From Minisyncoccota bacterium (GTDB taxonomy: Bacteria > Patescibacteriota > Minisyncoccia > Phycocordibacterales > Phycocordibacteraceae), in contig JBBAAE010000004.1 of assembly GCA_041658485.1 (NCBI GenBank), positions 1-58,174 of the forward strand: a stretch of DNA of 58,174 nt, written 5' to 3'. Under the pieces are notes generated by a model. That model was not told the origin of the DNA, did not search any database, and saw only the letters and a program-made list of their open reading frames with translations. The translations under genes were made by a program, and so were the position numbers. Below are positions 35,401 to 51,416 of the stretch, one piece after another. Positions within the stretch are counted from its first letter, which is position 1, and each line of letters starts with the position of its first letter.

Positions 35401-36722
35401 TAGCGCAGGCAAATAAGCGTTACGCAGAAATGGTTTTGAAAGCGGATAAGGACGGATACAGCCCATTTAAGGCTCGGGCTGACAAAAAGATAGGCGCAAT
35501 TAAAGAAGAGGAATATGCTCGCTATGCAGCAGAGGGAATAACTCGGGAAGAGTTGCACGACGCTAAAAGATTGGAGGTGATGACTGAGGCAAGACAGGAG
35601 TATGAAAAAGCGAAACGTGATGGCACGCTAGATTTGTCAGATGACGCCACTTTTGCGACACATAAACTTCTTGAGAACGAGCAAAAAACGCGCGACTATT
35701 ACAGAGGGAAAAACCCTCGAGAAATTAAAGCCATATTCAACAAACGAAGTTGGTGGTCAGCCAATACTCCTATAGGCATAAACGTTGACCAATTACAGTC
35801 CTTGGAGGGGCAAGATATAGGTGAACGCGATGAATTCTTTGCCCAAATGCTTATTCGTGGAGATGATTCGATGATTGCCAACTATGCTACCAACGAGCAT
35901 CTAAAAAGCTTGTTCGGTTGGCCATCGCCAGAGAGAATAAAGAAAATTAACTTGTGGCGTAGATCGATGGGTAAAGCGGAATTACCTCCTATTTTCTCTG
36001 AAGAGGGAATAACTGAAAGTCTCAAAGGAGGTGGATCTGAAATTAATCCAGAAGACGATGGGGGGGATAATTCTGGAGGTACGAGCGGAGAATCGCCGAG
36101 ACGACCCAGTGGAGGCAGTAACCCTGGCGGGCAAATAGCTGAATCACAATCAGCAACAACCACAACTGATGCAACGGCATCCTCAGAAATTAGAGACGTG
36201 GAGTTTGAAGACATTCAAACGCCTGACGAAACATCAACATTCACTGAAAGACAAGCTGCTGCCGCAGCTGCTACACGCACAACAGGCTCAGCAATTGAAC
36301 CAGGTGGTAGTGGTGATGATTTTCCTGAGCCGAGCGCTCCTGAAATAGTAGCGCCCACGATAACAGACACTGGGACTCAGGCGACACCAAGCACAACCCC
36401 TCAAGCAACCCAGCTATCGCCAGAAGATTACTTTAAGAACTTCGATCGAGGAAACCCCTATTCCGAAAATAACGTTTCTCAGGCTCGTGCATATCTGGAC
36501 AACCTCACGGATGATCAAATCATAAGCTTGCCTTCGCGCGTGGTGCCATTAGCACTGCCTGGCATTAAAAGGCCATCCACCGTCCTTGCGCTTCTAAATA
36601 GATATAAGAACGACAAAGACGCATTAACTGGCATCCGTGGCGGGTTTACCTTTCTCTATAATCAAAATAAACTTAGCGGAGAAATGGCGAATATGGTTAG
36701 GTCTTGGCAAAATCCAGCGTAG
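32481..36722 (+). CDS. Giant VirB6/TrbL-like polytopic membrane protein
   Basis: About 7-8 TM segments including WRIMRDLANL...LLVRLIIAALLVNFSFFFAGAVIDSSN and ILLILITSPIGIAG...WWEALFSQAFFAPVYF, then ~950 aa of soluble tail. Start set at ATG 32481. Confidence 0.72.
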   Translation: MKKRFLILTAFLILSSFALPVIAAPLESLAPQGGASGARATGVVQAVTNSGGTPEQANAIIESVTATEQAGIDDAMPPGGLTRGLSELVGGILHIVTWILLKIVTIFLYFIGMFFTFIVEQLVVNMGHFVTSSDAVGIQIAWRIMRDLANLAIIGGLIATAIGAILQLANMKPEKLLVRLIIAALLVNFSFFFAGAVIDSSNFLATTIYKATIQTEHCGESCNIVDRFNKVIRTYNHNILEYLELTKVDAGDIPADSQWMAVLQNLLSIVLMSVTVFVFLSATALLLGRFVALILILITSPIGIAGMVIPQISKYAKEWWEALFSQAFFAPVYFLLVGFSLTILDNSNGAFSGNDTNLIGGLLTFMVATVFMLQSLKIAKGMSEAAKRLGDVYKASDKVAGWMPKAYTGGLKFGGAFVARNTAGWAGDKFAPIYREFAARHRLDQKWWSAPADRLIQDRLGKLKEKKFFGFEGYGAIKEKRKGREVELGEVEKDEKQKAELLGKLTPAEKKALRALKKKLATGVLTPKEQEELDELKQKDVKSLTASEAARLATLGAKLSVGEKQQLDELSERKREGGALGKVNRLEKAYLEEYAAGNDRNKVSQARLEELRGKEKTGSLLAHERAELQHLDILKQKGVLGKDARLETWGEYWDRQLLRGDLGRKKLTAKEQELERQVLKAKVADGTITDAEKTRLAELENPTADGSFGEDKWAYHERLDAAKIDGKNSYRNARSDAESIYASISDGFWEREYDKNPKSIIQLAKILPKGQWIDLQKNPKIRRDIKNDMMRERFGTWARQVREVQNKVDSGEWLLGGEAYNAATLALFNDQTKNIPTSEEMRGLTLSDAVFDEKSGERFQDLRKLSVFPNVFSSSIFADIKDNKDLPKTEQRDFGSTKRKGLDMVRDQYAGGLMLFGLQSKDHMPFEDGTANYHGAERAVKDARAVLSAESSTSKVLARAALDPNSVSQSDLQLAQANKRYAEMVLKADKDGYSPFKARADKKIGAIKEEEYARYAAEGITREELHDAKRLEVMTEARQEYEKAKRDGTLDLSDDATFATHKLLENEQKTRDYYRGKNPREIKAIFNKRSWWSANTPIGINVDQLQSLEGQDIGERDEFFAQMLIRGDDSMIANYATNEHLKSLFGWPSPERIKKINLWRRSMGKAELPPIFSEEGITESLKGGGSEINPEDDGGDNSGGTSGESPRRPSGGSNPGGQIAESQSATTTTDATASSEIRDVEFEDIQTPDETSTFTERQAAAAAATRTTGSAIEPGGSGDDFPEPSAPEIVAPTITDTGTQATPSTTPQATQLSPEDYFKNFDRGNPYSENNVSQARAYLDNLTDDQIISLPSRVVPLALPGIKRPSTVLALLNRYKNDKDALTGIRGGFTFLYNQNKLSGEMANMVRSWQNPA

Positions 36723-36736
36723 GCTAGAAACATAGT

Positions 36737-37522
36737 ATGAAAACTCACACAACAGCAGAGAGAGAAGAAGCAAAGAAGAAGTTGCCACAAGCACTGTACG
36801 ATTTTTTAGCTTCACCATCACTCACAAAAATATATCTTGGGATACAGAAAAAACACGATTTAAATTTGCGACAACTTTTGCTGTTTACTGATATCGCAAA
36901 CATTACACTTATTGGTCTTGAGGTTGAGTCCGCACTTGAAACGAACTTGCACCAAGTCCTGCATGAGCTTTCAAGTGAGGGAACTCGAGAGCTTGTTGCA
37001 GACATTAACGACCGCGTCTTTAAGGAAGCCCGACGGCGAATTATTGAAAATATACCCGAGCCGAGCGTCTGGAGCAAGCGAGAAGTTGCACCATCACTTT
37101 CCGAAGAGGCGCGAGCAGAGGAAGCAGAGCGTGATGCTATAGAAAACATGGCTGACGATGATCCAAAATTGCTCGCAGCGTATGAAGCTGATAAAGCAGA
37201 AGCATTAAAAAAAGAAGAAGAAAATCAAAAAGAATTGGCGTTCGCGCTCGAACAGGCAAAAAACGATCCCGTCATCATCGAAGGAAATGACTTAGACATG
37301 GAGGAGGACGCCGAAAAAGAGCTGAGCACTTCCGTAGATGGGGCGCCAGTCAGCACTATAGTTGAAGAAAAAATGGGAACAGTGGCGCCAACAAAACCTG
37401 AACAGGATCCAATCCAAACACCGACATCAGAAAAACAAGAAAAGGTGATCCCCGTGATACCCGAACCACAAAAACCCGCATACAAAGGAGGAGTTGATCC
37501 GTACCGCGAACCAGTAGAGTGA
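36737..37522 (+). CDS. Hypothetical protein of the T4SS-like locus
   Basis: Helical N-terminal domain, acidic coil, and the C-terminal motif VDPYREPVE. Confidence 0.7.
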   Translation: MKTHTTAEREEAKKKLPQALYDFLASPSLTKIYLGIQKKHDLNLRQLLLFTDIANITLIGLEVESALETNLHQVLHELSSEGTRELVADINDRVFKEARRRIIENIPEPSVWSKREVAPSLSEEARAEEAERDAIENMADDDPKLLAAYEADKAEALKKEEENQKELAFALEQAKNDPVIIEGNDLDMEEDAEKELSTSVDGAPVSTIVEEKMGTVAPTKPEQDPIQTPTSEKQEKVIPVIPEPQKPAYKGGVDPYREPVE

Positions 37523-37525
37523 AGT

Positions 37526-37597
37526 AGGCGATGCCTCATCGGGTCCGTAGGGACCATGATAGTGAATAGGCGATGCTTCATCGGATCCGAAGGGATC
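37526..37597 (+). repeat. 30-bp double-hairpin repeat, tandem copies 3 and 4
   Basis: AGGCGATGCCTCATCGGGTCCGTAGGGACC (37526-37555) and AGGCGATGCTTCATCGGATCCGAAGGGATC (37568-37597). Confidence 0.8.
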
Positions 37598-37666
37598 GTT
37601 TAGGGAAATCCTAGCTAGATGAAAAAACACTAGACGCTAATCACTAAACGCTATACCCTTATCAGT

Positions 37667-38107
37667 ATGCAATTCCAAGTTCCTCAATTCGTTGAAGTTG
37701 AAGACAAAATTTTCGGTCCTCTCACCGCCGTACAATTTATATACCTCGTTGGGGGAGGCGGATTCCTCGTTGCACTGTGGTTTGTCCTGCCTCATTGGCT
37801 GGCAGTAATTATTGGTGGGCCAATTGCACTGTTGGGTGCTGGGCTCGCATTCTACAAAATCAACGACCGCCCACTCATAAATGCACTTGAGTCCGGCTTT
37901 CAGTATCTCTTTCGCACAAAACTCTACATTTGGGAGAAGAAACAATCAAAGACTGTCCTCCCTGACGAAATTACTCTTCCTGGGCAAACACCTGCGGAAG
38001 ACCCAGCAAAATACGCGCCTTCGGCCACTTCAAACAAAATTAAAGACCTAGCGTGGAGCTTAGATATAAAGGAGAGTATGTATTCGGACAAGAAACAACA
38101 GAGGTAG
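37667..38107 (+). CDS. PrgI-family (VirB3-like) membrane protein
   Basis: MQFQVPQFVEVEDKIFGPLTAVQFIYL, two TMs, then INDRP...F; upstream of VirB4. Confidence 0.85.
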   Translation: MQFQVPQFVEVEDKIFGPLTAVQFIYLVGGGGFLVALWFVLPHWLAVIIGGPIALLGAGLAFYKINDRPLINALESGFQYLFRTKLYIWEKKQSKTVLPDEITLPGQTPAEDPAKYAPSATSNKIKDLAWSLDIKESMYSDKKQQR

Positions 38108-38137
38108 GGGTTAGTGGACAGGGTTTAGGGTTTAGGG
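38103..38137 (+). repeat. G-rich heptamer arm upstream of the four-helix-bundle gene
   Basis: GGTAGGG GTTAGTG GACAGGG TTTAGGG TTTAGGG. Confidence 0.75.
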
Positions 38138-38150
38138 AAAAGAAAAAACC

Positions 38151-38531
38151 GTGGGAAACATTCAAAAGAAAGTTCTTTCGCATAAAGATCTCATAGTGTG
38201 GCAAAAATCTATGGATTTGGTTTCTGCTATATACAAAATTACTAAAAAATTTCCAGATGACGAACGATTTGGGCTCACATCTCAAATGAGGAGGTCTGCC
38301 GTTTCTATTCCCTCAAATATTGCTGAGGGTCGTGTACGACGAACCACAAAAGACTACATACACTTTCTTCATGTTGCGCTTGGTTCATCGGTGGAGCTAG
38401 ATACCCAGTTAGATATAGCACTTAGAGAAAATTTTATTCAAAAGTTAGACTATAATGAAATAAGCCCTCTTATTGAAGAGGTGAGTAGGATGCTTTCAGG
38501 ATTGATTTCATCCCTAAACGCTAAACGCTGA
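38151..38531 (+). CDS. Four-helix-bundle protein (23S rRNA IVP / Avd-like family)
   Basis: SHKDLIVWQKSMDLV..IY..T..FPDDERFGLTSQMRRSAVSIPSNIAEG..R....YIHFL..ALGS..EL.TQL; GTG start. Confidence 0.93.
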   Translation: MGNIQKKVLSHKDLIVWQKSMDLVSAIYKITKKFPDDERFGLTSQMRRSAVSIPSNIAEGRVRRTTKDYIHFLHVALGSSVELDTQLDIALRENFIQKLDYNEISPLIEEVSRMLSGLISSLNAKR

Positions 38532-38543
38532 CCCCTAAACACT
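38512..38543 (+). repeat. C-rich heptamer arm at the end of the four-helix-bundle gene
   Basis: CCCTAAA CGCTAAA CGCTGAC CCCTAAA CACT; encodes the last codons and the stop; 26/32 complementary to 38106-38137. Confidence 0.75.
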
Positions 38544-38550
38544 CCGATCT

Positions 38551-39225
38551 ATGTCTGGTGGCGACGAAAAAACAACAAAAACAAAAGCGGCTCAGGACTT
38601 CGTTCCAGTAAAGGAAGTTCGTGGGGGTGTGATGGTAATGAAAAACGGCACACTCGTCGGTGTAATGCTTGCTTCAAGTATTAACTTTGCACTTAAGTCA
38701 GAGGACGAACAAAACGCCATACTCTCGCAATTTCAGAGCTTTATGAATTCGCTTGATTTCAGTGTTCAGTTTTTCATACAATCTCGAAAGCTCGATATCA
38801 GGCCCTACATAGCACTTCTAGAGGAACGACTTAAAGCGCAGACAGAGGAACTGATGAAAATACAGGTGCGTGAATATATAGAGTTCATCAAAACATTCAT
38901 TGAGAGAGCGAACATCATGAGCAAACATTTCTTTATCGTGATTCCGTATTCTCCACCAGCGCTTGATATAAAAAAGGCAGTGCAAAATAAAGTGTTTGGG
39001 AAAACAAATCTGTCATCGAGAGATGCAAACTCCATTGGTTTTGAGGAACACCGTACACAGTTGGAGCAGAGAATGGGAGTGGTGGAACAAGGATTGGCCC
39101 GAACAGGCGTGCGAACTGTTCCTCTCGGCACTGAAGAGGTCATAGAGCTTCTCTATAAAGAATTCAATCCTGGGGAATTGGAAAAACCAATCATTGTGGA
39201 TCAAACTAACGCACCACTTATATAA
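38551..39225 (+). CDS. VirB4-associated (TraC/TraE N-terminal-like) protein
   Basis: QDFVPVKEVRGGVMVMKNG...SINFALKSEDEQNAIL..F..FMNSLDFSVQFFIQSRKLD; 2 nt upstream of virB4. Confidence 0.7.
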   Translation: MSGGDEKTTKTKAAQDFVPVKEVRGGVMVMKNGTLVGVMLASSINFALKSEDEQNAILSQFQSFMNSLDFSVQFFIQSRKLDIRPYIALLEERLKAQTEELMKIQVREYIEFIKTFIERANIMSKHFFIVIPYSPPALDIKKAVQNKVFGKTNLSSRDANSIGFEEHRTQLEQRMGVVEQGLARTGVRTVPLGTEEVIELLYKEFNPGELEKPIIVDQTNAPLI

Positions 39226-39227
39226 TT

Positions 39228-41039
39228 ATGGGAATCTTCGATACATTTTTAGGTAACGCTGGGAAAAATAAGGAGACCCTAACTCCTTTTTTACCTAAAG
39301 ATATTTATGAAGCTGCGAAGCTCGACTTTGCAGACATCATTGCACCATCAGCTCTGAAAATTACTCCGCGTGAAATGAACTTGGGCGACAAGCTCGTGCG
39401 CACCTTCTATGTTATTTCATACCCACGCTTTTTGTCAGGCACTTGGTTTGCTCCAATCATTAATCGTGACCGAGTGCTTGATATTTCCATATTCATTCAC
39501 CCTGTAGATACGGCCGCAATTCTTCGCAAGTTTCAGAAAAAAGTTGCTGAGGTACAAAGCCAAATAATGACTCGCCAAGAAAAAGGGATGGTACGAGACC
39601 CTATGCTCGACACAGCCTACCAAGACATCGAGCAACTCAGAAATCAACTTCAGCAAGCGCAGGAGCGAGTATTTGATGTGGGTCTCTATATCTCAATTTA
39701 TGGCACAAACCAAGACGAATTAGACAAAACTGAAGCAGAAATGCGCTCAATTCTTGACTCAAAACTTGTATACATAAAACCCGCACTATTCCAGCAGGAG
39801 CAAGGATTCAAGAGCGTTATACCAATAGGGGATGACCAACTGGCAGTTAATTCAAAGATGAATTCTGCACCGCTCTCAAGTTTCTTCCCGTTTATTTCCT
39901 TCGATCTTACGAGCGATAAAGGAATCCTCTACGGTATAAACAGACATAACTCATCATTAATTCTCTTTGATAGATTTTCGCTTGAAAACTACAACTCAGT
40001 GACCTTTGCAAAATCAGGTTCAGGAAAATCATACGGCACCAAACTTGAAATTTTGAGATCATTGATGTTCGACACGGAGGTCATCGTTATAGACCCTGAA
40101 AGCGAGTATGAATATCTTGCAAATGCGGTGGGTGGAAGATTTTTCAATATCTCGCTCTCATCAGAAAATCGCATCAATCCTTTTGATTTGCCTGTGCCTC
40201 GCGAAGATGAATCGCCAGCTGATATTCTTCGCTCAAACATCATCAACCTCGTGGGACTATTTCGCTTAATGCTCGGCGGTCTTACACCTGAAGAAGATGC
40301 AATTATTGACCGTGCCATTACAGAAACGTATGCGCTTAAAGACATCACCGGTGCAAACGATTTCACCGGCATGGAACCACCACTCCTTTCTGACTTCGAG
40401 TTGGTACTTGCCGGCATGGAGGGAAGTGAGTCTTTAGTTCAGAGAATTACAAAATACACCAAGGGCACATGGTCTGGCTTTATTAATCGGCCAACCAATG
40501 TGGACATCAACAAAAAGTTCGTTGCGTTCTCAGTTCGAAACATGGAGGACGAGCTGAAAACGATTGCGATGTACATCATTACGCACTTCATTTGGAATGC
40601 GGTGAGAAAAGATTTGCGCAAACGACTTCTTGTTATTGATGAGGCATGGTGGATGATGAAATCAGAAGATACTGCCGCGTTCCTTTACGGAATGGCAAAG
40701 CGCGGAAGAAAATACTATCTTGGTCTCGCTACCATTACTCAAGATGTTGAGGACTTCCTAAAATCACCCTACGGATTGCCGATGCTTACTAACTCATCAA
40801 TCCAACTTCTTTTGAAGCAATCACCAACATCCATAGATGCCGTACAAAAAACATTCAACCTCACGGAGGAAGAAAAATATCTTCTGCTTGAATCTGATGT
40901 GGGTGAGGGGATTTTCTTCGCGGGACTCAAACATGTCGCCATAAAAATAATTGCATCCTACACTGAAGACCAAATAATCACTTCAGACCCATCTCAACTT
41001 CTTGCAATAGCCCAGCAGAAGAGGGAAGCCTCTGAGTAG
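39228..41039 (+). CDS. virB4: VirB4-like type IV secretion ATPase
   Basis: FDRFSLENYNSVTFAKSGSGKS (Walker A), IVIDPESEY, INPFDL, LLVIDEAW (Walker B), KRGRKY, TITQDVEDF. Confidence 0.9.
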   Translation: MGIFDTFLGNAGKNKETLTPFLPKDIYEAAKLDFADIIAPSALKITPREMNLGDKLVRTFYVISYPRFLSGTWFAPIINRDRVLDISIFIHPVDTAAILRKFQKKVAEVQSQIMTRQEKGMVRDPMLDTAYQDIEQLRNQLQQAQERVFDVGLYISIYGTNQDELDKTEAEMRSILDSKLVYIKPALFQQEQGFKSVIPIGDDQLAVNSKMNSAPLSSFFPFISFDLTSDKGILYGINRHNSSLILFDRFSLENYNSVTFAKSGSGKSYGTKLEILRSLMFDTEVIVIDPESEYEYLANAVGGRFFNISLSSENRINPFDLPVPREDESPADILRSNIINLVGLFRLMLGGLTPEEDAIIDRAITETYALKDITGANDFTGMEPPLLSDFELVLAGMEGSESLVQRITKYTKGTWSGFINRPTNVDINKKFVAFSVRNMEDELKTIAMYIITHFIWNAVRKDLRKRLLVIDEAWWMMKSEDTAAFLYGMAKRGRKYYLGLATITQDVEDFLKSPYGLPMLTNSSIQLLLKQSPTSIDAVQKTFNLTEEEKYLLLESDVGEGIFFAGLKHVAIKIIASYTEDQIITSDPSQLLAIAQQKREASE

Positions 41040-41130
41040 CGTTTAGTGGTCAGGGTTTAGTGTTTAGCGAGATACCTTCGGAGCCGACGAAGCGTCGCCT
41101 AAACACTAGCCACTAAACGCTAAACCCTAA
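41037..41130. repeat. Heptamer-arm hairpin enclosing a reversed 30-bp repeat (copy 5, 41071-41100)
   Basis: G-arm TAGCGTTTAGTGGTCAGGGTTTAG (identical to 48878-48901), then GATACCTTCGGAGCCGACGAAGCGTCGCCT, then C-arm CTAAACACTAGCCACTAAACGCTAAACCCTAA. Confidence 0.75.
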
Positions 41131-41283
41131 GGGCTTTTAGTGTGCTGTCCCTCCTATGGCCTGCCTACGGCATCGGCCATTCCCGAGGACGGTATCGGAA
41201 TAAACATGGAGCAGTCCATGTTTATTCCCCTAAACGCTAACCCCTAAACGCTAAACGCTCCGTCGCACCTTATAATAAGAACT

Positions 41284-42252
41284 ATGCTCCGTGGAATACT
41301 CGTGCTCTCTCTATTAATACTAGCGCCCATTTTTGCTTCAGCGGCTACGCTACAAAGCTTTGGCTCACCTCTAGAAATAGGGGTAAGCCCTGAGCACCCA
41401 CGCGCAGGCAATCAAGTAACATTGACGGTCTCCGACCCGCAGGAAGAGGTGGGTACAACGGCGTACATGTGGTTAGTAAACGACAGAATAGTTGATCAAG
41501 GCATCGGACACAAATCAATTTCTATTACGGCAAGAGGGGAAGGAACGACCGAAACTATACGTGTTATCGCTATTGAAAATGATGTTGCTAGGGGCGATGC
41601 CGTGACCATCATTCGACCAGCGTCGGTAGATATTATATGGGAAGGGGATACCTACACACCTCCTTTGTATACCGGACGCCCACTTCCTACCGCACAAAGT
41701 ATAGTTACGGTTATTGCCATCCCACATATTCCTGTAAACGGCGTTGAGGCTGAAGCTGAATCTCTTATCTATTCATGGAAAATGGGCGGGGTTACTTTAC
41801 AAAAACAATCAGGCTACGGAAAATCGAGCATCGCAGTAACTCCTCCGCGTTTTGGTTCTGCTTTTACTGTTTCTGTTCTTGTGAGCAACAAAAGCGGTAC
41901 AGTAGTCGCAGAAAATTCAGTCCTCATTCAACCACAAACACCATCTCTTATTATTTATGAGGATGCGCCACTTCTTGGCGTGCGCTTCAATAAAGCCCAG
42001 ATTGACCTATTCCCATTTACTGCTGACGAGGTATCATTCGTTGCGTACCCGCTCTTTGTGAGCAATATGAACGATGTGTCCTACACATGGAACCTCGACA
42101 CCTCTCCATTTGCAGTTGACCCTGCACGGCCTCGTAATGCTACATTTAGGAAGGTTGGAGGCGGTAAAGGAACGCATACGGTGAGTGTCTCATTTGAAAA
42201 TATGAAAAAATTCTTAGAGCGCGGAGAGATTGCATTTCAACTTACATTTTAA
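41284..42252 (+). CDS. Secreted hypothetical protein, probably with tandem beta-sandwich domains
   Basis: Signal peptide; repeated Y.W motifs (AYMWLV, IYSWKM, SYTWNL). Confidence 0.7.
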   Translation: MLRGILVLSLLILAPIFASAATLQSFGSPLEIGVSPEHPRAGNQVTLTVSDPQEEVGTTAYMWLVNDRIVDQGIGHKSISITARGEGTTETIRVIAIENDVARGDAVTIIRPASVDIIWEGDTYTPPLYTGRPLPTAQSIVTVIAIPHIPVNGVEAEAESLIYSWKMGGVTLQKQSGYGKSSIAVTPPRFGSAFTVSVLVSNKSGTVVAENSVLIQPQTPSLIIYEDAPLLGVRFNKAQIDLFPFTADEVSFVAYPLFVSNMNDVSYTWNLDTSPFAVDPARPRNATFRKVGGGKGTHTVSVSFENMKKFLERGEIAFQLTF

Positions 42253-44125: not shown

Positions 44126-44602
44126 CTACTGAGGCGTTGGCACACCCTCACCTTTATAGCGAATCACAATATGTCGAAGCTTACCTTCGCCCTCTGACTC
44201 CGTTTTGATACTAGGGGAACCTTGGAGAGACGCGTGCACAATCAAACGGTCGTATGGACTCATGGGACTCATGTCGACATCGTGTTTAAAGGTACGCGCA
44301 CGCTCTGCAAGTGAAAGTGCCTGTGCCTCGAGCATCTTTATGTGTTTCAAGTGATATCCGTTTACATCAACAACAAAACGAAATGGTTCATCTCCTTTCG
44401 AACCAGCTTCGAGTGTTTTTTTCACCACATGATTAAAGGCGTGGAGCGTTTCTCCTCCTGTACCAATGAGTGCTCCAGAATCTTCCAAGAGAAGTGTGAA
44501 GAGGGTATGCCCCGCGACTTCAGACACGACAACATCTTTGAGGTCTAAACCCATTTTAGTAACCAACTCCTTAATAACGGCGATGACTTTATTTTTTTCC
44601 AT
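44126..44602 (-). CDS. jag: Jag/EloR (KH + R3H) RNA-binding protein
   Basis: GALIGTGGETLHAF (KH); PMSPYDRLIVH...TESEGEGKLRHIVI (R3H). Confidence 0.85.
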   Translation of the reverse strand: MEKNKVIAVIKELVTKMGLDLKDVVVSEVAGHTLFTLLLEDSGALIGTGGETLHAFNHVVKKTLEAGSKGDEPFRFVVDVNGYHLKHIKMLEAQALSLAERARTFKHDVDMSPMSPYDRLIVHASLQGSPSIKTESEGEGKLRHIVIRYKGEGVPTPQ

Positions 44603-45323
44603 TGTGCATTCGGCGTATTGCTAACTCTTGCCCAATACTGAAAAGATTTCCTACAAGAAAGTACAGCGCAATTGCTGACGATGCCGCATATGCAACCACA
44701 CCAATAACAACAGGGAAAACATACTTCATTTGAAGATTCATACTTCTAGAAAGGTCCTCTTGGAAAGAAGGCTTGCTTCCTGAAGTATTTTTAGGGGGTA
44801 ACGCTGGCATCATAAGGCGAGCATAAATAAACTGCGTAATAGCCACTATGATAGCGAGAACAATACTTTTGCCTGCAAGGTCTACAAAGCCAAGAAATAG
44901 TAACGACGCTTGGTCAGGAACCTGCACAAACGCGTAGAGGATGTTGGGATCAAATGAGACCGCCTTGCTTTCGTGCTCCAGTACGAGATACAGCCCAATA
45001 ATTATTGGGAGTTGAATTAATATGAGAAGAAAGCTTGCAAATGGGTTGATATTATTTTCTTTAAAAAGTGCCATTGTGCGACGGGCCAGCTCTTCCTTGT
45101 TGTCTTTTAATTTTTCCCGGAGCTCCTTCAACTGCGGCTCAATAGAACGCATCGAAATCTGTGTTTTAATCGCAGACATCGAGAGAGGGAACAGGATGAG
45201 GCGTACAAGTATCGTGATGAGGACAATAGCAATTCCTATATCACCTCCTGGTACAACACCAATAATAAAAGCGAGTGCGTTGTAAATTGGTTGATAGATT
45301 GCTGTGTGGAAAAAAGATGCCAT
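44589..45323 (-). CDS. yidC: Membrane protein insertase YidC/Oxa1, short form
   Basis: GIAIVLITILVRLILFPL, NPFASFLLILIQLPIIIGLY, LYFLVGNLFSIGQE. Confidence 0.92.
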   Translation of the reverse strand: MASFFHTAIYQPIYNALAFIIGVVPGGDIGIAIVLITILVRLILFPLSMSAIKTQISMRSIEPQLKELREKLKDNKEELARRTMALFKENNINPFASFLLILIQLPIIIGLYLVLEHESKAVSFDPNILYAFVQVPDQASLLFLGFVDLAGKSIVLAIIVAITQFIYARLMMPALPPKNTSGSKPSFQEDLSRSMNLQMKYVFPVVIGVVAYAASSAIALYFLVGNLFSIGQELAIRRMHNGKK

Positions 45324-45420
45324 TTCATCGCATTGTAGCTTATGGAAACAAAAGCTTCTAGCTTGAAGGTAAAGAATAGAAGGTGGGAAGTCGAAGTTTT
45401 AAGCTGGAACCTGACAGCTT

Positions 45421-45729
45421 TCAAATTCTTAGGGCTTTCTCAAGCTCTTTCTTCAGCTCTTGAAATGGGGCGGTGAGTGCCAATGCATTTGGGTACACAA
45501 CCACAACGCTACCAAGCACCCCTGTGCGAATAAGGGGTCTAAGAATGTTATAGATTCGCCGCCTAAGTTTGTTTCTTTCTGGGGCCGTTTTACAAACCTT
45601 TTTTGACACAACAACTGCACCTGATGGATGCCCCGCAAACCCTTTTATAGAGCCATATATAAAGCGACCCATTCGCACAGGTCGCTTTTGGAAAGTAAGC
45701 CTTGAAACCCGTTCTTTTTTCGACAACAT
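45421..45729 (-). CDS. rnpA: Ribonuclease P protein component
   Basis: MLSKKERV..., VVVSKKVCKTAPERNKLRRRI (RNR motif); located between rpmH and yidC. Confidence 0.85.
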   Translation of the reverse strand: MLSKKERVSRLTFQKRPVRMGRFIYGSIKGFAGHPSGAVVVSKKVCKTAPERNKLRRRIYNILRPLIRTGVLGSVVVVYPNALALTAPFQELKKELEKALRI

Positions 45730-45736
45730 GGAGGAG

Positions 45737-45925
45737 CAGGGGACAGCGTTTAGGGGTTAGTGTTTAGAGGTTGAGTTCTGGATGCTAGGCGACGCTTCTG
45801 ATGCTTCATCACCTGACTCTTAGTCATACTGTCGAGTGCTAGTCGAGGGTTCGGCTCCGTAGAGAACAGGCTTCATCGGATTCAAAGATGCCCCCTAAAC
45901 GCTAAACACTTTCCCCTAACCCCTA
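45737..45925. repeat. Heptamer arms enclosing ~120 bp of degenerate repeat cargo between rpmH and rnpA
   Basis: G-arm CAGCGTTTAGGGGTTAGTGTTTAG near 45744-45767; C-arm CCCTAAACGCTAAACACT...CCCCTAACCCCTA at 45894-45925; AGGCGACGCTTC at 45787. Confidence 0.65.
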
Positions 45926-46078
45926 TTTCCCTTTTACCTTGCTTACAACAGTGAGCTTGGCGCGACCCTTACGACGACGATTCTTTAAAACCTTCCTGCC
46001 TGAGGTGGTGGCCGTACGGACTAAGAAACCGTGGGTTGTGGCTCTCTTTCTTTTTTTAGGTTGGTATGTTCTTTTCAT
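45923..46078 (-). CDS. rpmH: 50S ribosomal protein L34
   Basis: Hand-translated [51 protein letters not shown] (below the track cut-off). Confidence 0.95.
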
Positions 46079-46193
46079 ATTCGCTGAATGTTATACACAA
46101 GTATCTCACAGTTTATTAACACGAGCGTGCCTTTTCCGCAAGTTTGCTGTTTTCTCCACACAGGTATAATAACTGAACTTTCAGTAATTTTAC
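46079..46193. promoter_or_regulatory. rpmH/dnaA divergent promoter region with DnaA boxes
   Basis: TTATACACA (46091-46099), TTATTAACA and TTCTCCACA (46152-46160); TATAAT at 46165-46170. Confidence 0.7.
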
Positions 46194-47540
46194 ATGGAAC
46201 TCGACACAAAACAGCTCTGGGAAAATACACTAACGAACATAGAGCTTTCAATATCGCCAGCAAGTTTCAAAATGTGGTTCGGGGAAACCCACATCGTACG
46301 GATAGAAGACGGTGTTGTGTTCGTTGGTGTCCCTAATCAACTGACAAAAGAGTGGGTTTCTGAACGGTTTGGTAAACTTGTTTTAAAAACAATCAGAGGT
46401 TTTGTTGATACTTTGCGTGGCGTTGAATATATTGTTTCAAAAGAAAGCCTAAAACGAGTCCCTGAAAAAGTCATTGTAGAAACTCGACCGGAATCAGAGC
46501 TTCCTCTCTCCGACTATTACATAAATAGATCGGACAATTTAAATCCACGCTATACATTCGACACCTTTGTCGTGGGACCCTTTAACGAACTAGCCTTTAC
46601 TGCAGGACAAGTGGTTGTAAAAAACCCAGGAATTGCCTACAACCCGCTATTTGTGTATGGCGAAACCGGGAGGGGGAAGACACACCTCACTCAAGCCGTT
46701 GGAAACCAGATTAAAAAGGCTTACCCTTCAAAGAAAGTTTTCTATTTAACCGCGGAGCGATTCGGGTTTGAGTTTATGAATGCCATAAATAACCGAAGTA
46801 TTCCTTCATTTAAAGACAAATACCGCTCGTACGATGTCCTCATTATTGATGATATACAATTCTTCTCAAAAAAAGGGACTATACAGGAAGAATTCTTTCA
46901 TCTATTCAATACCCTCCATGATGCCAATAAGCAAATTGTCTGCTCATCTGATAAGCACCCAAACTTAATCCCTGACATTACTGAGCGCTTAAAGTCTCGC
47001 TTTATTGCGGGTATGGCTGTTGCAATAAATGAACCTGATCATGAATCGCGTATGGCAATCATTAAAACAAAAGCTGAATCAATGAATCTCACACTTTCTG
47101 ACTTAACTATTGAGAACCTCTCCATAGCTGTTCCAGGGAACATTCGTGAAATAGAAGGGATGCTCAATACTATTTTGTGTCAAATACAGCTCAAAGGAAC
47201 ACTTTCTGAAGATCAAATTAAGGACCTAATAAAAACAACTGCGAGACCAAAGAGGGCTGTTTCAGTTAAACATGTTATTTCAAGAATTGCTGAGTTCTAC
47301 AATATCGATGAGGCGAGTATGTATGCAAAGACAAGACGTCGTGAGGTAGTTCGTCCGCGCCAAATCATGATGTATATCCTTAGGGAGGATTTTCACCTAT
47401 CATACCCAGCAATTGGGACAGTTTTTGGTGGGCGCGACCACACTACAGTTATTCATGCTTGTGAAAAGGTTCGTGGGGGAATAACAACCGACACTGACCT
47501 AAAGACACAGATTGAGGAAATTAGGGGTATGTTGAAATGA
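46194..47540 (+). CDS. dnaA: Chromosomal replication initiator DnaA
   Basis: LNPRYTFDTFVVG, YNPLFVYGETGRGKTHL, LIIDDIQF, RLKSRF, FGGRDHTTVIHA. Confidence 0.98.
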   Translation: MELDTKQLWENTLTNIELSISPASFKMWFGETHIVRIEDGVVFVGVPNQLTKEWVSERFGKLVLKTIRGFVDTLRGVEYIVSKESLKRVPEKVIVETRPESELPLSDYYINRSDNLNPRYTFDTFVVGPFNELAFTAGQVVVKNPGIAYNPLFVYGETGRGKTHLTQAVGNQIKKAYPSKKVFYLTAERFGFEFMNAINNRSIPSFKDKYRSYDVLIIDDIQFFSKKGTIQEEFFHLFNTLHDANKQIVCSSDKHPNLIPDITERLKSRFIAGMAVAINEPDHESRMAIIKTKAESMNLTLSDLTIENLSIAVPGNIREIEGMLNTILCQIQLKGTLSEDQIKDLIKTTARPKRAVSVKHVISRIAEFYNIDEASMYAKTRRREVVRPRQIMMYILREDFHLSYPAIGTVFGGRDHTTVIHACEKVRGGITTDTDLKTQIEEIRGMLK

Positions 47541-47772
47541 TGTTGAAAATAGTATGAATAACTTGTTGAGATTACTAGTGGATAATATGTTGAAAACAAT
47601 TACACCAAAGCGACTAGTAGCTAAAACAGTCAATATTCACAATACAAAACAAACTTTTAAACAGTTTCTTCTAAAAAAAATCCATAAATACAGCTTAAAT
47701 AAAAGACTTTTAAGCTACCCACATAGTCCACAGTGTATTAGAATGAGTGGATCCTCTTAATTAAAATAAAAT
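47541..47772. other. Probable oriC (dnaA-dnaN intergenic region)
   Basis: AT-rich with degenerate DnaA boxes (TATGAATAA, AGTGGATAA, TAGTCCACA, CTACCCACA); plus-strand composition appears to change from A/C-rich to G/T-rich here. Confidence 0.65.
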
Positions 47773-48873
47773 ATGAAAATTGAAATTTTAAGAGAGAATT
47801 TAGAGAAAGCTGTTGCTATAGCATCCAAAGTTAGTAATAAGAACCTTTCGTTACCTGTTTTTGGTTGTGTAGTAATTGTTGTTGAAGGTGATAGGGCTGT
47901 ACTTCGCGCAACAAACCTTGATTTAAGTGTAGAAGTTATTCTTAAAGCAAAAATAATCCAAGATGGAATTATTGCTATTCCCGCACACATACTCGCACAA
48001 ACTACTTCAGCGCTCACGGATCAGAAGTTGTTATTAAAAACATCAGGAAATAATCTTATTATTGATGGTGAAAGGGGGACTACCTCTATAGCGCTTATTG
48101 ACCCATCTGAGTTTCCAACTCTATCGTATGTTAAGGATGGGGTTGGAAGTTCCGCAACCTTACCTGTTCGAGAATTTATAACGGCACTGAAGTCAGTTTC
48201 ATTTGCAGCCTCAACTTCTAGTGTAAAACCAGAACTTTCAAGTATCTCCCTTACTTTAGAAAAGGGGGAGCTTGTTGCTGTGGCTACAGATTCATTTCGT
48301 CTTGCTGAAATAAAAATACCTATAAAAACAAAAAATTCATTCAATTCTGTATTAATACCAGCTCGAAATGTTCCGGATATATTGAGGGCGATTGAGTCAG
48401 GTGTGGATGTTGAGGTTCGTGTTGGGGATAATCAGTGTTCATTTATATCTGATTTTGGGCACATCACTTCTCGAACAATAGATGGATCCTTCCCAGACTA
48501 TCAAGCAATTATTCCGCGTGATTACGTTGCTTCGGCGACATGTTTAAAAGAGGATGCATCACGCGCCTTTCGAAAAATTTCAATTTTTACCGATTCTTTT
48601 AATCAGGTACACATTTCATTAAAGGCTTCTGAAAAAACATTCACTGTTCGTGCAGTGAATGCTTCGGTGGGAGAAACTATTGACCATATCCCAGCAGTTC
48701 TTGAGGGTGAAGATATTGATATTAATTTCAATGCAAAATATATCGTTGACGCTCTTTCGATAGTGGTTGGTGATAGTGTTACTTTCTCTGTAGCTGGTGC
48801 TGGAAAGCCGATGGTTATGAATGATGTCCCAAATAAAGGCTTCACATACTTAGTGATGCCGATGAATAGGTAG
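47773..48873 (+). CDS. dnaN: DNA polymerase III beta sliding clamp
   Basis: LRATNLDLSV, VATDSFRLAE, IDGSFPDYQAIIP, FNAKYIVDAL, YLVMPM. Confidence 0.97.
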   Translation: MKIEILRENLEKAVAIASKVSNKNLSLPVFGCVVIVVEGDRAVLRATNLDLSVEVILKAKIIQDGIIAIPAHILAQTTSALTDQKLLLKTSGNNLIIDGERGTTSIALIDPSEFPTLSYVKDGVGSSATLPVREFITALKSVSFAASTSSVKPELSSISLTLEKGELVAVATDSFRLAEIKIPIKTKNSFNSVLIPARNVPDILRAIESGVDVEVRVGDNQCSFISDFGHITSRTIDGSFPDYQAIIPRDYVASATCLKEDASRAFRKISIFTDSFNQVHISLKASEKTFTVRAVNASVGETIDHIPAVLEGEDIDINFNAKYIVDALSIVVGDSVTFSVAGAGKPMVMNDVPNKGFTYLVMPMNR

Positions 48874-48877
48874 GTAT

Positions 48878-48950
48878 TAGCGTTTAGTGGTCAGGGTTTA
48901 GAGAATAAATTCCCCAATGCTCCCCCTAAACGCTATCCCCTAGCAACTAG
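48878..48950. repeat. Empty heptamer-arm hairpin
   Basis: G-arm TAGCGTTTAGTGGTCAGGGTTTAG, ~22-nt spacer, C-arm CCCTAAACGCTATCCCCTAGCAACTAG. Confidence 0.7.
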
Positions 48951-48952
48951 TC

Positions 48953-49216
48953 ATGAAACTCGTAAATGATTTTCTTGCCCGTTTCCAAAACTTAACACCA
49001 CCAGATGATGCTGTGCGCCGTGCGATTGCTTCAGCTGTTTTTTTTGTTGCAAAAGTTCCTGTGAAAAAAGAAGACGTGTCCATATCAAACTCTGTGGCAT
49101 TTATTCGCTGTTCTTCGGTTGCAAAGAGCGCCATTCAGGTTGCTCGTGGCGCCATTCTCAACGAGCTTTTTCAAGAGATGCCGAAAGCACGAAATACTGT
49201 GAGGGATATCCGTTGA
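48953..49216 (+). CDS. Small protein, possibly DciA/DUF721-like
   Basis: Follows dnaN; VSISNSVAFIRCSSVAKSAIQVARGAILNEL resembles the beta-beta-alpha pattern of DUF721. Family assignment is inference. Confidence 0.5.
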   Translation: MKLVNDFLARFQNLTPPDDAVRRAIASAVFFVAKVPVKKEDVSISNSVAFIRCSSVAKSAIQVARGAILNELFQEMPKARNTVRDIR

Positions 49217-49217
49217 G

Positions 49218-49303
49218 AGGTAGGGGTTAGGGAAAAGCGCTTAGTGTTTAGGGGGCACCCCTAAGGATTCTCCCTAAACGCTAGCCACTAACCCCTAAAC
49301 ACT
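49218..49303. repeat. Empty heptamer-arm hairpin between convergent genes
   Basis: GGTAGGGGTTAGGG...TTAGTGTTTAGGGG / CCCTAAACGCTAGCCACTAACCCCTAAACACT. Confidence 0.7.
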
Positions 49304-49304
49304 G

Positions 49305-51416
49305 CTATTGAGTGAATGGAGTTCCATCTACGAAGCCATGTTGAGTTGCCCACGTTCTGACACCCCACTCCCATCGAGCAAATTGTGGATCATTGTTGGG
49401 GTTACTTGGGCGAGCTCCTCGCGGATCATTTTTATCAAGCCAGTAGAGAATTGAGTGCACAGAAACGGTGCCGTCGCTCCCTTGCCATACACCACGAAGC
49501 ACTGGTTTATCGGACGGACCCTCTAAAGGAGTTGCTTCAGGGAAGGGGGTATTAGGGAATTTAGTGAGAGCATATTGCGTAAACTCATGCCAGAGAGGAG
49601 CCACAATGAATCCGGCTATTTTTTTTGCCATAGGGCTGTTGTCGTTATTGCCTGCCCACGCTCCTACGGATATGTCGGGTGTATAGCCTAAAATCCAAGC
49701 ATCACGGTAATCGTTTGTCGTTCCTGTTTTTACTGCAACATGACGACCTGGGAAATTTAATGCGGAAGTTGCTCCGAACTCAGGAGTGCGGGCAACGTTA
49801 TCAGAAAGGATGTCGGAGATGGAGAGTGCGATATTGGCGTCGAGCACTCTTTCGGGCGTTAGTGTGTATGACTTTACCTCATTTCCGTTTTTGTCTTCAA
49901 TACGAAGTATTGCGCGGTATGGATTCCGCACACCTTCGTTTGCAAAAACACCGTATGCACTTGTCATGTCGAGTGGGGTGACTTCGCCACCACCAAGAAC
50001 CAAAGTTAGCCCGTAGCGGTCTGATCCAGCGAGTGTGGTGATACCAAGTGACCGTGCAAGCGAAAGTGCATTGTTTATTCCCACAAGATAGAGCACTTTC
50101 ACTGCGGGGATATTTCTTGATTGTGCGAGAGCATCTCGCAAGGTCATTGGCCCATTAAATTTATTATCGTAGTTTCCTGGTGCATAGCAGGGAGGTGTAT
50201 CGCTCAAGCTTGCTGGTGGGCACTCAGTTGAGAACTGTGTCGGCACATCAAAGAGCACGGTGTTTGATGTGTATCCTTTAGTGAAGGCGGCTGCGTACAC
50301 AAATGGTTTGAATGAAGAACCTGGTTGGCGTTTCGCTAAGGCTATGTTGTAGGCGCCGTTTATTTCTGGATCAAAATAATCTCGGGATCCAGCCATCACA
50401 AGAATGTCTCCCGTTTTTGGTGCAATGGCGACGATACTCGCGTTCTCAGCATTAAATTTCTTCTTATTTTCAAGAGCATTTTTCTTTACAATCTCCTCTG
50501 CTTTGGCTTCAAGGTCGGCGTCAAGTGTAGTAATAATGCGCCAGCCAGACTGCTCTAGTGCACTTGTACCAAACTCTTGTTCCAAGAGCCCTCGAACATA
50601 GAAGACGAAGTGTGGTGCGCGAATACCAGCCGTTGCTTGAGGAGCAAAAGCCACAACCTCAGATTTTGCTAGCGTGTATTCTTGTTCAGATATAAATTTC
50701 AAGTCTTTCATTCGCGAGAGCACAAGATTTTTTCTGTTATCTAAGTCATCGCGATGATTGCCGTACGGTGAAAAGTACGTAGGGGCTTGGGGTAGGGCAG
50801 CGAGGTACGCCGCTTCGGCGAGAGTTACATCTTTTGCGTGCTTGGTGAAGAATTGCTCACTAGCTTCTTCAACACCATAGATAAGTCCGCCGTACGGATT
50901 TCCATTAAGATAGAGCTCGAGGATTTGTTCTTTGGTGAGCACTCGCTCAAGCTTTATTGCAAGAATCCACTCCTTCACTTTTCGTGCGATAGTTTTATCG
51001 ATAGTGAGGATAGAATTTTTTACTACTTGCTGTGTGATGGTTGAACCGCCCTGTTCAAAGCCAAGAGAAAGGACATTAACGATTGTGGCTCGAAGAAATG
51101 CCAACGGGCGTACGCCAGCGTGATGGTAGAATTCCGCGTCTTCTATCGCAACGGTTGCTTGTTTTATGTATGGAGAAATCTCACTTTCTGACACAACAGT
51201 ACGCATCATATTTTGACTCAGATCATCAAGAAGAATAGTACCTGTACGGTCATAAATTTTTGTTGATTGTTCAATTTTTCTAGTCTCCAAAGACTTGATA
51301 TCGGGGATTTTTAATGACACTGCCCAAATGAGTAGAGCCCCTATACTAAATAGTGCAAGCGCACTAATAATGAGGAAAAAAGATTTCTTATTTTTAATCA
51401 AGCGCCGTCTTCGCAT
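49305..51416 (-). CDS. Class A penicillin-binding protein (PBP1A family)
   Basis: Transglycosylase motifs AIEDAEFY, GGSTITQQVVKN and EAAYLAALPQAP; transpeptidase motifs RQPGSSFKP, SRNIP and KTGT. Confidence 0.95.
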   Translation of the reverse strand: MRRRRLIKNKKSFFLIISALALFSIGALLIWAVSLKIPDIKSLETRKIEQSTKIYDRTGTILLDDLSQNMMRTVVSESEISPYIKQATVAIEDAEFYHHAGVRPLAFLRATIVNVLSLGFEQGGSTITQQVVKNSILTIDKTIARKVKEWILAIKLERVLTKEQILELYLNGNPYGGLIYGVEEASEQFFTKHAKDVTLAEAAYLAALPQAPTYFSPYGNHRDDLDNRKNLVLSRMKDLKFISEQEYTLAKSEVVAFAPQATAGIRAPHFVFYVRGLLEQEFGTSALEQSGWRIITTLDADLEAKAEEIVKKNALENKKKFNAENASIVAIAPKTGDILVMAGSRDYFDPEINGAYNIALAKRQPGSSFKPFVYAAAFTKGYTSNTVLFDVPTQFSTECPPASLSDTPPCYAPGNYDNKFNGPMTLRDALAQSRNIPAVKVLYLVGINNALSLARSLGITTLAGSDRYGLTLVLGGGEVTPLDMTSAYGVFANEGVRNPYRAILRIEDKNGNEVKSYTLTPERVLDANIALSISDILSDNVARTPEFGATSALNFPGRHVAVKTGTTNDYRDAWILGYTPDISVGAWAGNNDNSPMAKKIAGFIVAPLWHEFTQYALTKFPNTPFPEATPLEGPSDKPVLRGVWQGSDGTVSVHSILYWLDKNDPRGARPSNPNNDPQFARWEWGVRTWATQHGFVDGTPFTQ

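Follow-up and report, generated by a model that had tools for sequence, protein, structure and literature searches.

What the S23p/IVS protein family and rRNA intervening sequences (IVSs) are for has been a puzzle since the early 1990s. The locus described here raises a related question: why does a gene of this family lie in a protein-coding operon, exactly at the junction of two cistrons, and why is it enclosed by inverted arrays of 7-nt repeats? The locus is part of a 58,174-nt stretch of DNA from a Minisyncoccota bacterium (contig JBBAAE010000004.1 of assembly GCA_041658485.1, positions 1 to 58,174), referred to below as the window. Positions 38101 to 38550 of the window are one discrete module of about 450 bp, composed of a four-helix-bundle (4HB) gene and two arrays that are inverted relative to each other and comprise four to five heptamer units each, and the module stands precisely at the junction where prgI stops and the next gene of an operon resembling those of type IV secretion systems (T4SSs) starts. 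Comparison with related genomes shows that this slot, whose neighboring genes are nearly identical, is occupied by three or more strongly divergent alleles (A, B, and C), of which the window has one, and that whole modules, with or without a gene, are replaced with sharp boundaries between genomes that are about 2% apart. The explanation that we favor, with moderate confidence, is that of a discrete module of the IVS type that sits at a cistron junction and can be exchanged, closed by an RNA stem formed by its arms, in which modules are swapped as units and the 4HB protein acts on the heptamer arrays.

Structure of the cassette and its neighbors

The 4HB gene (38151 to 38531) encodes 126 amino acids and belongs to the 23S rRNA IVS protein/S23p family. 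Its product matched PF05635 with an E value of 2e-41 (141 bits against a cutoff of 33.8, residues 12 to 117 on profile positions 1 to 106), TIGR02436 with 132.5 bits (cutoff, 24), and the solved, pentameric XCC0516 protein of Xanthomonas campestris (PDB 2GSC) with an E value of 1e-29. Upstream is the VirB3-like gene prgI (37667 to 38107; PF12666, E = 8e-9), and downstream is a TrsD/TraC-like gene (38551 to 39225) with likeness to the N-terminal region of VirB4; this gene scored below the cutoffs of all NCBIfam TrsD and VirB4 models, and PF26593 was matched on its identical or near-identical homologues. A gene for a VirB4-type ATPase follows (39228 to 41039; PF19044, E = 1e-21). These genes and the arms described next are all on the plus strand, and the position that the initial annotation had given the 4HB gene, between prgI and the partner gene of virB4, was confirmed.

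The 5' G-rich arm (38101 to 38137) is built from heptamers that end in YAG, in the order GAGGTAG, GGGTTAG, TGGACAG, GGTTTAG, and GGTTTAG, followed by GG. This chain of five units occupies 38101 to 38135, and the TAG stop codon of prgI (38105 to 38107) is its first in-register unit. A purine-rich spacer of 13 nt (AAAAGAAAAAACC, 38138 to 38150, plus strand) separates the arm from the GTG start codon at 38151, which is common to the 96%-identical allele of L226. (L numbers designate related loci that were fetched; the TrsD-like gene as query gave 38 of them, L001 to L038.) The 3' C-rich arm (38512 to 38543) reads CCCTAAA, CGCTAAA, CGCTGAC, CCCTAAA, and CACT. It encodes the final six codons of the 4HB gene (SLNAKR) and its TGA stop codon, has TAA or TGA in all three frames, and is followed by a short cassette tail (38544 to 38550, plus strand) that precedes the ATG of the downstream gene. 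Both coding overlaps, that of the G-rich arm with the prgI stop and that of the C-rich arm with the end of the 4HB gene, had been read correctly in the initial annotation.

Complementarity between the arms was likewise as first described: positions 38106 to 38137 (AGGGGTTAGTGGACAGGGTTTAGGGTTTAGGG) and 38512 to 38543 (CCCTAAACGCTAAACGCTGACCCCTAAACACT) pair at 26 of 32 positions, including a CAG/CTG variant unit. When 300 equally spaced flank pairs were placed at random in the window, the best complementarity of 32-mers was 16.7 on average and 20 at most. The RNA duplex of the two arms had a calculated energy of −41.6 kcal/mol, compared with −24.0 ± 3.8 kcal/mol when the 3' arm was shuffled, and both the minimum free energy and the centroid folds of a 455-nt transcript closed the cassette by its arms (z = −2.9).

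A role as intrinsic terminator was considered for the arms and rejected. A consensus scan covering 36700 to 41400, a range that does not extend to the gene-less hairpins at about 45.8, 48.9, and 49.2 kb, found no terminator-like site at either cassette arm, and the C-rich arm has no run of T after it.

Replacement of the whole unit at the slot

The window belongs to a Patescibacteria genome that is Paceibacteria-like, and its closest relatives are metagenome-assembled genomes from groundwater. Within this close clade, the proteins flanking the slot are 97 to 100% identical to those of the window while the 4HB proteins are merely 55 to 62% identical, and the 4HB protein of the window is 67 to 70% identical to those of genomes whose flanking proteins are 58 to 87% identical. 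Three cassette types, distinguished by their arm units, occupy this one slot in genomes that are 92 to 98% identical: type A, with GTTTAG (the window, L221, L222, L226, and L229); type B, with CTAG (L001, L002, and L004); and type C, with CAG (L024). L119 and L121 also carry type B, and L120 carries type C.

Aligned to L001, L002, and L024, the window DNA is 85 to 100% identical up to 38106 and from 38569 onward, and 35 to 75% identical in between. The breakpoints coincide with the outer edges of the arms, on the left in the G-rich arm (38101 to 38137) and on the right at about 38545 to 38568. The clearest case is the pair of L121, of type B, and L120, of type C, which share 97.8% identity across 10.3 kb; identity falls to 59% in the cassette, to 55% in the hairpin region that follows virB4, and to 47% at the 45.8-kb slot. 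In this pair, each 100-nt bin flanking the cassette shows 2 differences, and the 300 nt that follow on the right show none. Polymorphism therefore does map to the arms, in L001, L002, and L024 as well as between L121 and L120, a point on which the initial annotation had staked its proposal. (The same pair has 20 differences in 39800 to 39899, inside virB4, which may be a local variable patch or an alignment shift.)

Rapid divergence or drift of the cassette in situ was rejected because the alleles are as different as those of distant genomes while the adjacent bins show 0 to 2 differences per 100 nt. The unit of arm, gene, and arm is exchanged en bloc. A tree built from 9,160 coding columns joined L121 to L120 with bootstrap support of 100 and L229 (type A) to L119 (type B) with support of 88, leaving L229 apart from the window; cassette type therefore conflicts with the backbone tree. 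Informative backbone sites beside the slots did not track the hairpin alleles. In the source sample, from a landfill metagenome (run X1), a minor contig (depth of 7 versus 37) carries both sides of the slot; its intervening stretch did not align to the window cassette and is marked "not known," so that the contig would fit a second, co-occurring allele but does no more than that. In these ultrasmall bacteria, no other loci change nearly as fast as the hairpin slots that separate housekeeping genes.

The initial annotation had pictured a system of filled and empty cassettes. The discreteness of the unit stood, with identity breaking at the outer arm edges and gene-less arms occurring elsewhere in the window. 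An empty state was not seen at the slot among the close relatives, which carry other cassettes (replacement); more distant relatives without the gene mostly have a short junction that lacks arms, and L007 has arms alone.

Inverted arms as a trait of 4HB genes

To place the cassette in the context of its family, 80 loci encoding 4HB relatives from many phyla (Patescibacteria, Bacteroidota, Clostridia, Planctomycetota, Acidobacteriota, Proteobacteria, and others) were surveyed together with the T4SS loci. Each gene was scored by the best ungapped inverted repeat between its 5' and 3' flanks, with 1,136 other open reading frames (ORFs) of the same loci as controls. The median score was 14.5 for 4HB genes versus 7 for control ORFs, and the 99th percentile of the controls was exceeded by 69 of 93 4HB genes versus 11 of 1,136 controls. 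After deduplication, 72 of 99 4HB genes had a score of at least 12, compared with about 1% of control ORFs, so arms accompany 4HB genes much more frequently than they accompany other ORFs, contrary to two of the outcomes that the initial annotation had named as fatal, 4HB genes that lack arms and arms flanking random genes equally often. A typical arm spans about 26 nt (three to five units), mostly with a period of 7, and the repeat unit differs from genome to genome. The G-rich arm is usually on the 5' side (565 G-C pairs versus 163 C-G pairs), and the conserved C-terminal L-K/N-A-K motif of the 4HB protein is encoded by arm units.

Two loci in the survey have features of their own. Units of CAACAAC/GTTGTTG occur at many sites in L025 (2714 to 4729 and 8244 to 8290), and the arm polarity of its 4HB gene is reversed, with the C-rich arm upstream and the G-rich arm downstream. 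In L033 (3466 to 3879), the slot between prgI and the TrsD-like gene is occupied by a GxxExxY gene (TIGR04256, 58.8 bits) that is enclosed by inverted heptamer arms of the ACGAAT type; a second family of small genes therefore uses the same packaging.

A proposed explanation and the results that weigh on it

How might such a module be carried in an operon? In the operon transcript, the arms are predicted to form a stem of about 30 bp by which the insert is closed off. Like the stems of rRNA IVSs, this one may be cut by RNase III, or it may at least shield the neighboring cistrons from the insert, and closure of the stem would allow an insert to be tolerated at tightly coupled cistron junctions. 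Modules could be exchanged by a transposase-free, hairpin-dependent process or by recombination via the conserved flanks. The heptamer arrays are the most likely target of the 4HB protein, whose solved homologue is a pentameric ring.

Several results weigh against this explanation and set its limits. Among the arm mismatches of 72 armed cassettes, 51 were of the G·U type and 56 of the opposite (A·C) type, so there was no excess of G·U on the sense strand; because this wobble test was neutral, selection on the stem could act on DNA or not at all. All 24 of the 24 sequencing runs found were DNA metagenomes. Harmless looping out of the insert is a conjecture because a cut by RNase III in an mRNA separates cistrons and does not rejoin them. 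No empty site was seen among the close relatives, and a scan of metagenomes for a junction of 5 to 35 nt between the end of prgI and the start of the partner gene also found 0; the filled-site control found only 1, so this zero is uninformative. No transposase, integrase, or reverse transcriptase was among the Pfam matches of the neighboring genes (approximately 27.5 to 51.4 kb), several of which had no Pfam match at all. Finally, recombination in the flanks with old standing alleles and site-specific exchange leave the same traces and cannot be told apart.

Gene-less hairpins and the resident cassette

The cassette and the gene-less heptamer hairpins are the same class of module. As the initial annotation had observed, the arm type of the cassette recurs in the window, either without a gene, in hairpins immediately 3' of dnaN (48867 to 48953) and between an 87-amino-acid ORF and the PBP1 gene (49224 to 49308), or with short cargo. 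One of the latter (41033 to 41133) has a loop that contains a single copy of a 29-nt double-hairpin repeat (41071 to 41099, minus strand), and the other (45733 to 45922) lies between rnpA, on the minus strand, and dnaA and carries about 125 nt of cargo. This last hairpin is 93% identical to its counterpart in L229 and 28% identical to that in L119. Outside the hairpins, a solo C-type array of CTAAACG units (41227 to 41257) is identical in L229, a type A relative, and another C-type array immediately 5' of prgI (37630 to 37657) is kept in relatives; apart from the 29-nt repeat, all of these features are on the plus strand. The motif GGGTTTAGGG, with at most one mismatch, occurs 23 times compared with 2.3 expected, and a 24-mer, TAGCGTTTAGTGGTCAGGGTTTAG, is identical at 41037 (41037 to 41060) and at 48878, in the G-rich arm of the hairpin after dnaN. 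With respect to transcription, none of 15 usable hairpins lies between minus-strand genes, a number too small to judge orientation.

Six genomes have heptamer hairpins in the same intergenic slots with differing sequences. These slots follow virB4, dnaN, and the next small ORF, lie on either side of rnpA, and include one near 58.2 kb. Downstream of dnaN, five genomes have identical flanks, and what is replaced in the window is the hairpin alone.

Comparison of the 7-nt units showed that these hairpins tend to share a dialect within a genome. Unit similarity between different slots was 0.45 within genomes versus 0.305 across genomes (permutation P = 0.0002). The dialect also tends to correspond to the resident cassette: the cassette arms of the window had a similarity of 0.81 to the gene-less arms of their own genome and of 0.23 to the arms of other genomes. 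In a matrix of seven genomes, type A cassette arms scored 0.69 to 0.88 against the gene-less arms of type A genomes and 0.13 to 0.19 against those of L119 to L121, while type B arms scored 0.57 to 0.69 against L119 and L121, 0.45 to 0.47 against L122, and 0.05 to 0.14 against type A genomes. The match between cassette and gene-less arms had an exact permutation P value of 0.006, a test carried by just two clearly separated dialect groups (A versus B). The match has exceptions: the hairpin that follows dnaN in L229 is of another type, C-type arms occupy the 49.2-kb slot of L121 (type B), other types are present near 45.8 kb in L120 (type C), and CTAG-type arrays remain in the window, at 825, 16604, and 20895. 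The 7-mer dialect of gene-less hairpins thus tends to match the arms of the resident cassette.

This tendency suggests a reading that would extend the favored explanation without excluding it, in which the 4HB protein is a trans-acting, sequence-specific partner of the heptamer hairpins of its genome, maintaining, spreading, or rewriting the gene-less copies, with its gene placed between a cognate pair of arms. Such a partnership, reminiscent of that between repetitive extragenic palindromic (REP) elements and RAYT proteins, is offered tentatively. Beyond the similarity of the window arms to their own cassette and the A/B matrix, it draws on the dialect split, which cuts across the backbone tree, on the common unit order of the G-rich arms at 38.1, 41.03, and 48.87 kb, and on the uniformity of units within the loci L025, L007, and L033. 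It is opposed by the exceptions just listed, by the narrow basis of the test in two groups, and by the protein itself, which has no known nuclease or recombinase fold; allele linkage or shared descent could yield the same picture. More doubtful still is the stronger form of a two-part system, in which each 4HB allele would read its own 7-nt dialect and the arrival of a new cassette would lead to the rewriting of gene-less hairpins at fixed slots to match it.

Alternatively, the hairpins could be host elements that regulate or insulate cistron boundaries, through RNA stability or stops in all frames, with the 4HB gene as a passenger in the loop of one of them. Gene-less hairpins outnumber 4HB genes and keep their positions across relatives. 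The first unit of a hairpin is often the TAG stop codon of the upstream gene, as at four sites in the window (38105, 41037, where the stop of virB4 opens the next hairpin, 48871, and 20899), C-rich arms stop all three frames, and L007 has gene-less arms at the slot between prgI and the TrsD-like gene. The passenger reading nevertheless appears unlikely. Roughly three-quarters of 4HB genes in many phyla are armed, each with a different unit, and the conserved C-terminal motif of the protein is encoded by those units; relatives without a 4HB gene at the slot mostly have a plain junction of 1 to 60 nt without arms, and the break in identity between alleles takes in the arms.

The family connection drawn in the initial annotation, to rRNA IVSs and to the Avd protein of diversity-generating retroelements, was borne out by the PF05635 and 2GSC matches and by a hit to the bAvd model PF22296 just under its cutoff. 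A third alternative takes the gene for a remnant or accessory gene (an Avd) of such a retroelement. The likeness to Avd is weak, with 37.3 bits against PF22296 (cutoff, 40) and 41.5 bits against the Avd equivalog NF033474 (cutoff, 80). With both scores under their cutoffs, no reverse transcriptase matched by Pfam in the neighboring ORFs at about 27.5 to 51.4 kb, and allele differences that span the whole gene and its arms and not one variable region, a retroelement origin is very improbable. An assembly artifact, in the form of repeat-induced chimeras in metagenome bins, would fit the break of source-sample short-read contigs at the G-rich arm (38071 to 38100) but can be dismissed, as the type A cassette is in the same slot of independent assemblies from other samples (L221, L222, L226, L228/L229, and L230), a 3.7-kb contig of run X4 spans the cassette, and types B and C are each found in independent projects.

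Comparison with known systems

The feature is a member of the TIGR02436 family and is not an rRNA IVS, an Avd gene, or a RAYT system; it is built like an rRNA IVS and distributed like a RAYT system. The closest known system is the ORF-bearing 23S IVS (helix 45 of Coxiella burnetii, and Leptospira), which carries an S23p ORF. The Coxiella burnetii IVS has a terminal stem of 28 bp, tandem GACAGAT heptamers before the S23p start codon, and a cut by RNase III (PMC4990558). Repeat-unit copy number varies between strains in ORF-bearing 23S IVSs, which have been proposed to be selfish or once mobile (PMC4990558), and rRNA insertions in bacteria of the candidate phyla radiation (CPR) sometimes bear an S23p ORF (PMC11270868). 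Like these, the cassette encodes a PF05635/TIGR02436 protein in the loop of a terminal stem of about 28 to 30 bp, with long stem-forming inverted repeats around the ORF and tandem heptamers beside the start codon. Unlike them, it is hosted not by a 23S or 16S rRNA helix but by the stop/start junction of a protein-coding T4SS-like operon, with prgI and the TrsD-like gene as flanks. At gathering threshold, Rfam found four tRNAs only and no rRNA match in the whole window. The cassette has an intact, conserved ORF, RNase III excision, a feature of rRNA IVSs, is putative here, and very different alleles per slot in near-identical genomes, along with gene-less copies of the same arms elsewhere, are found here. 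Literature searches under the family names returned no such cassette in protein-coding operons; the published layout was found only for rRNA.

The second comparison is with REP/REPIN-RAYT systems. These share with the cassette a single gene inside an inverted pair of the genome's own short repeat, many gene-less intergenic hairpin copies of that repeat, and a repeat type that goes with the gene type; the inverted repeats that flank the 4HB gene are indeed also dispersed without a gene. They differ in the protein, which is a four-helix bundle here and not an HUH (Y1) transposase of the IS200/IS605 type, in any activity on DNA, which is putative here, and in the repeats, which are arrays of a 7-nt unit and not a fixed palindrome. 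Compared with miniature inverted-repeat transposable elements and insertion sequences, the cassette has inverted arms, with no transposase seen nearby and no empty site among close relatives. Integron cassettes resemble it in their promoterless small ORF in the orientation of the host transcript, their imperfect inverted-repeat site, and their swapping at a fixed place, but the system described here has no integrase and no attI/attC structure, has arms on both sides, and has slots scattered among housekeeping genes. A search of the 4HB protein against the PADLOC defense models matched no family at an E value of ≤0.01.

Dispersed heptamers of other bacteria (GGGAATC in Xanthomonas, GGGGAYT short tandemly repeated repetitive [STRR] sequences in Nostoc, and TAACTGA in Beggiatoaceae) are also genome-specific intergenic 7-nt units, and the solved 4HB homologue 2GSC comes from Xanthomonas campestris. 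The Xanthomonas heptamer forms about 70 convergent inverted pairs, with no gene link described (PMC4692102; PMC4679880). Reports on such heptamers tie the repeats to no gene family, in contrast to the arrays here, which bracket a 4HB gene and are replaced as modules. The locus joins two puzzles, the purpose of the S23p/IVS family and the origin of dispersed bacterial heptamer repeats, and is a case of an IVS-type module in a setting other than rRNA. The three types found at this one slot (A, B, and C), together with gene-less hairpins that match them in part, form a natural allelic series in which cognate and noncognate combinations can be compared. A two-part system, if true, would be like REPIN-RAYT without a known nuclease and would provide a protein partner for the unexplained heptamers of Xanthomonas, cyanobacteria, and CPR bacteria. 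Fast-changing hairpin slots also matter for strain typing and for the assembly of such genomes.

4HB genes in the T4SS-like operons of relatives

A 4HB gene occupies the same slot in 8 of the 38 loci retrieved with the TrsD-like gene (L001 to L005, L021, L024, and L025) and in the later-fetched L221 to L223, L225, L226, and L228 to L230. In other relatives such a gene precedes prgI or separates the TrsD-like gene from virB4, and in L030 all three junctions, those on either side of prgI and the one that separates the TrsD-like partner gene from virB4, are filled by 4HB genes. About 20 of the 38 loci have none. An iterated profile search found 18 4HB ORFs in the 281 kb of T4SS-centered loci (L001 to L038), at the three junctions around prgI, and no 4HB ORF in 1.3 Mb of loci centered on another gene from 80 Paceibacteria genomes (L141 to L220). 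This background came from a contig scan with a 708-amino-acid protein (17444 to 19570) and recovered loci that do not include the close relatives; because the genome sets differ, the clustering of 4HB genes in the T4SS-like operon is a lead only. An ancient founder insertion with later hops over short distances could account for it.

The virB4 gene itself is interrupted by about 2 kb after residue 268 in L009 (5896 to 7865), L030 (4456 to 6437), and L033 (5990 to 7971), possibly by an intein, an intron, or another insert. In L009, a further 4HB-like ORF lies inside this insert on the opposite strand.

Other features of the window

The T4SS-like operon adjoins a set of replication-origin genes (44126 to 49216) comprising jag (R3H), yidC, rnpA, a 76-amino-acid ORF (45939 to 46169), dnaA, and dnaN. 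Hairpins adjoin rnpA and also bracket the 3' end of dnaN and the 87-amino-acid ORF that follows it. The four tRNA genes are at 1748 to 1818, 10654 to 10724, 11646 to 11716, and 12116 to 12187, and mechanical ORF calls that overlap them (e.g., 1453 to 1812 and 10607 to 10942) are probably not genes.

The 29-nt double-hairpin repeat found in the loop after virB4 (GGCGACGCTTCGTCGGATCCGAAGGGATC) had no match in Rfam. It occurs at 867 to 895, 13743 to 13771, 37527 to 37555, 37569 to 37597, and, on the minus strand, 41071 to 41099, usually within or beside heptamer arms. Changes between copies are compensatory and paired in both stems, and in the source sample the contig depth of this repeat is about 10 times the background.

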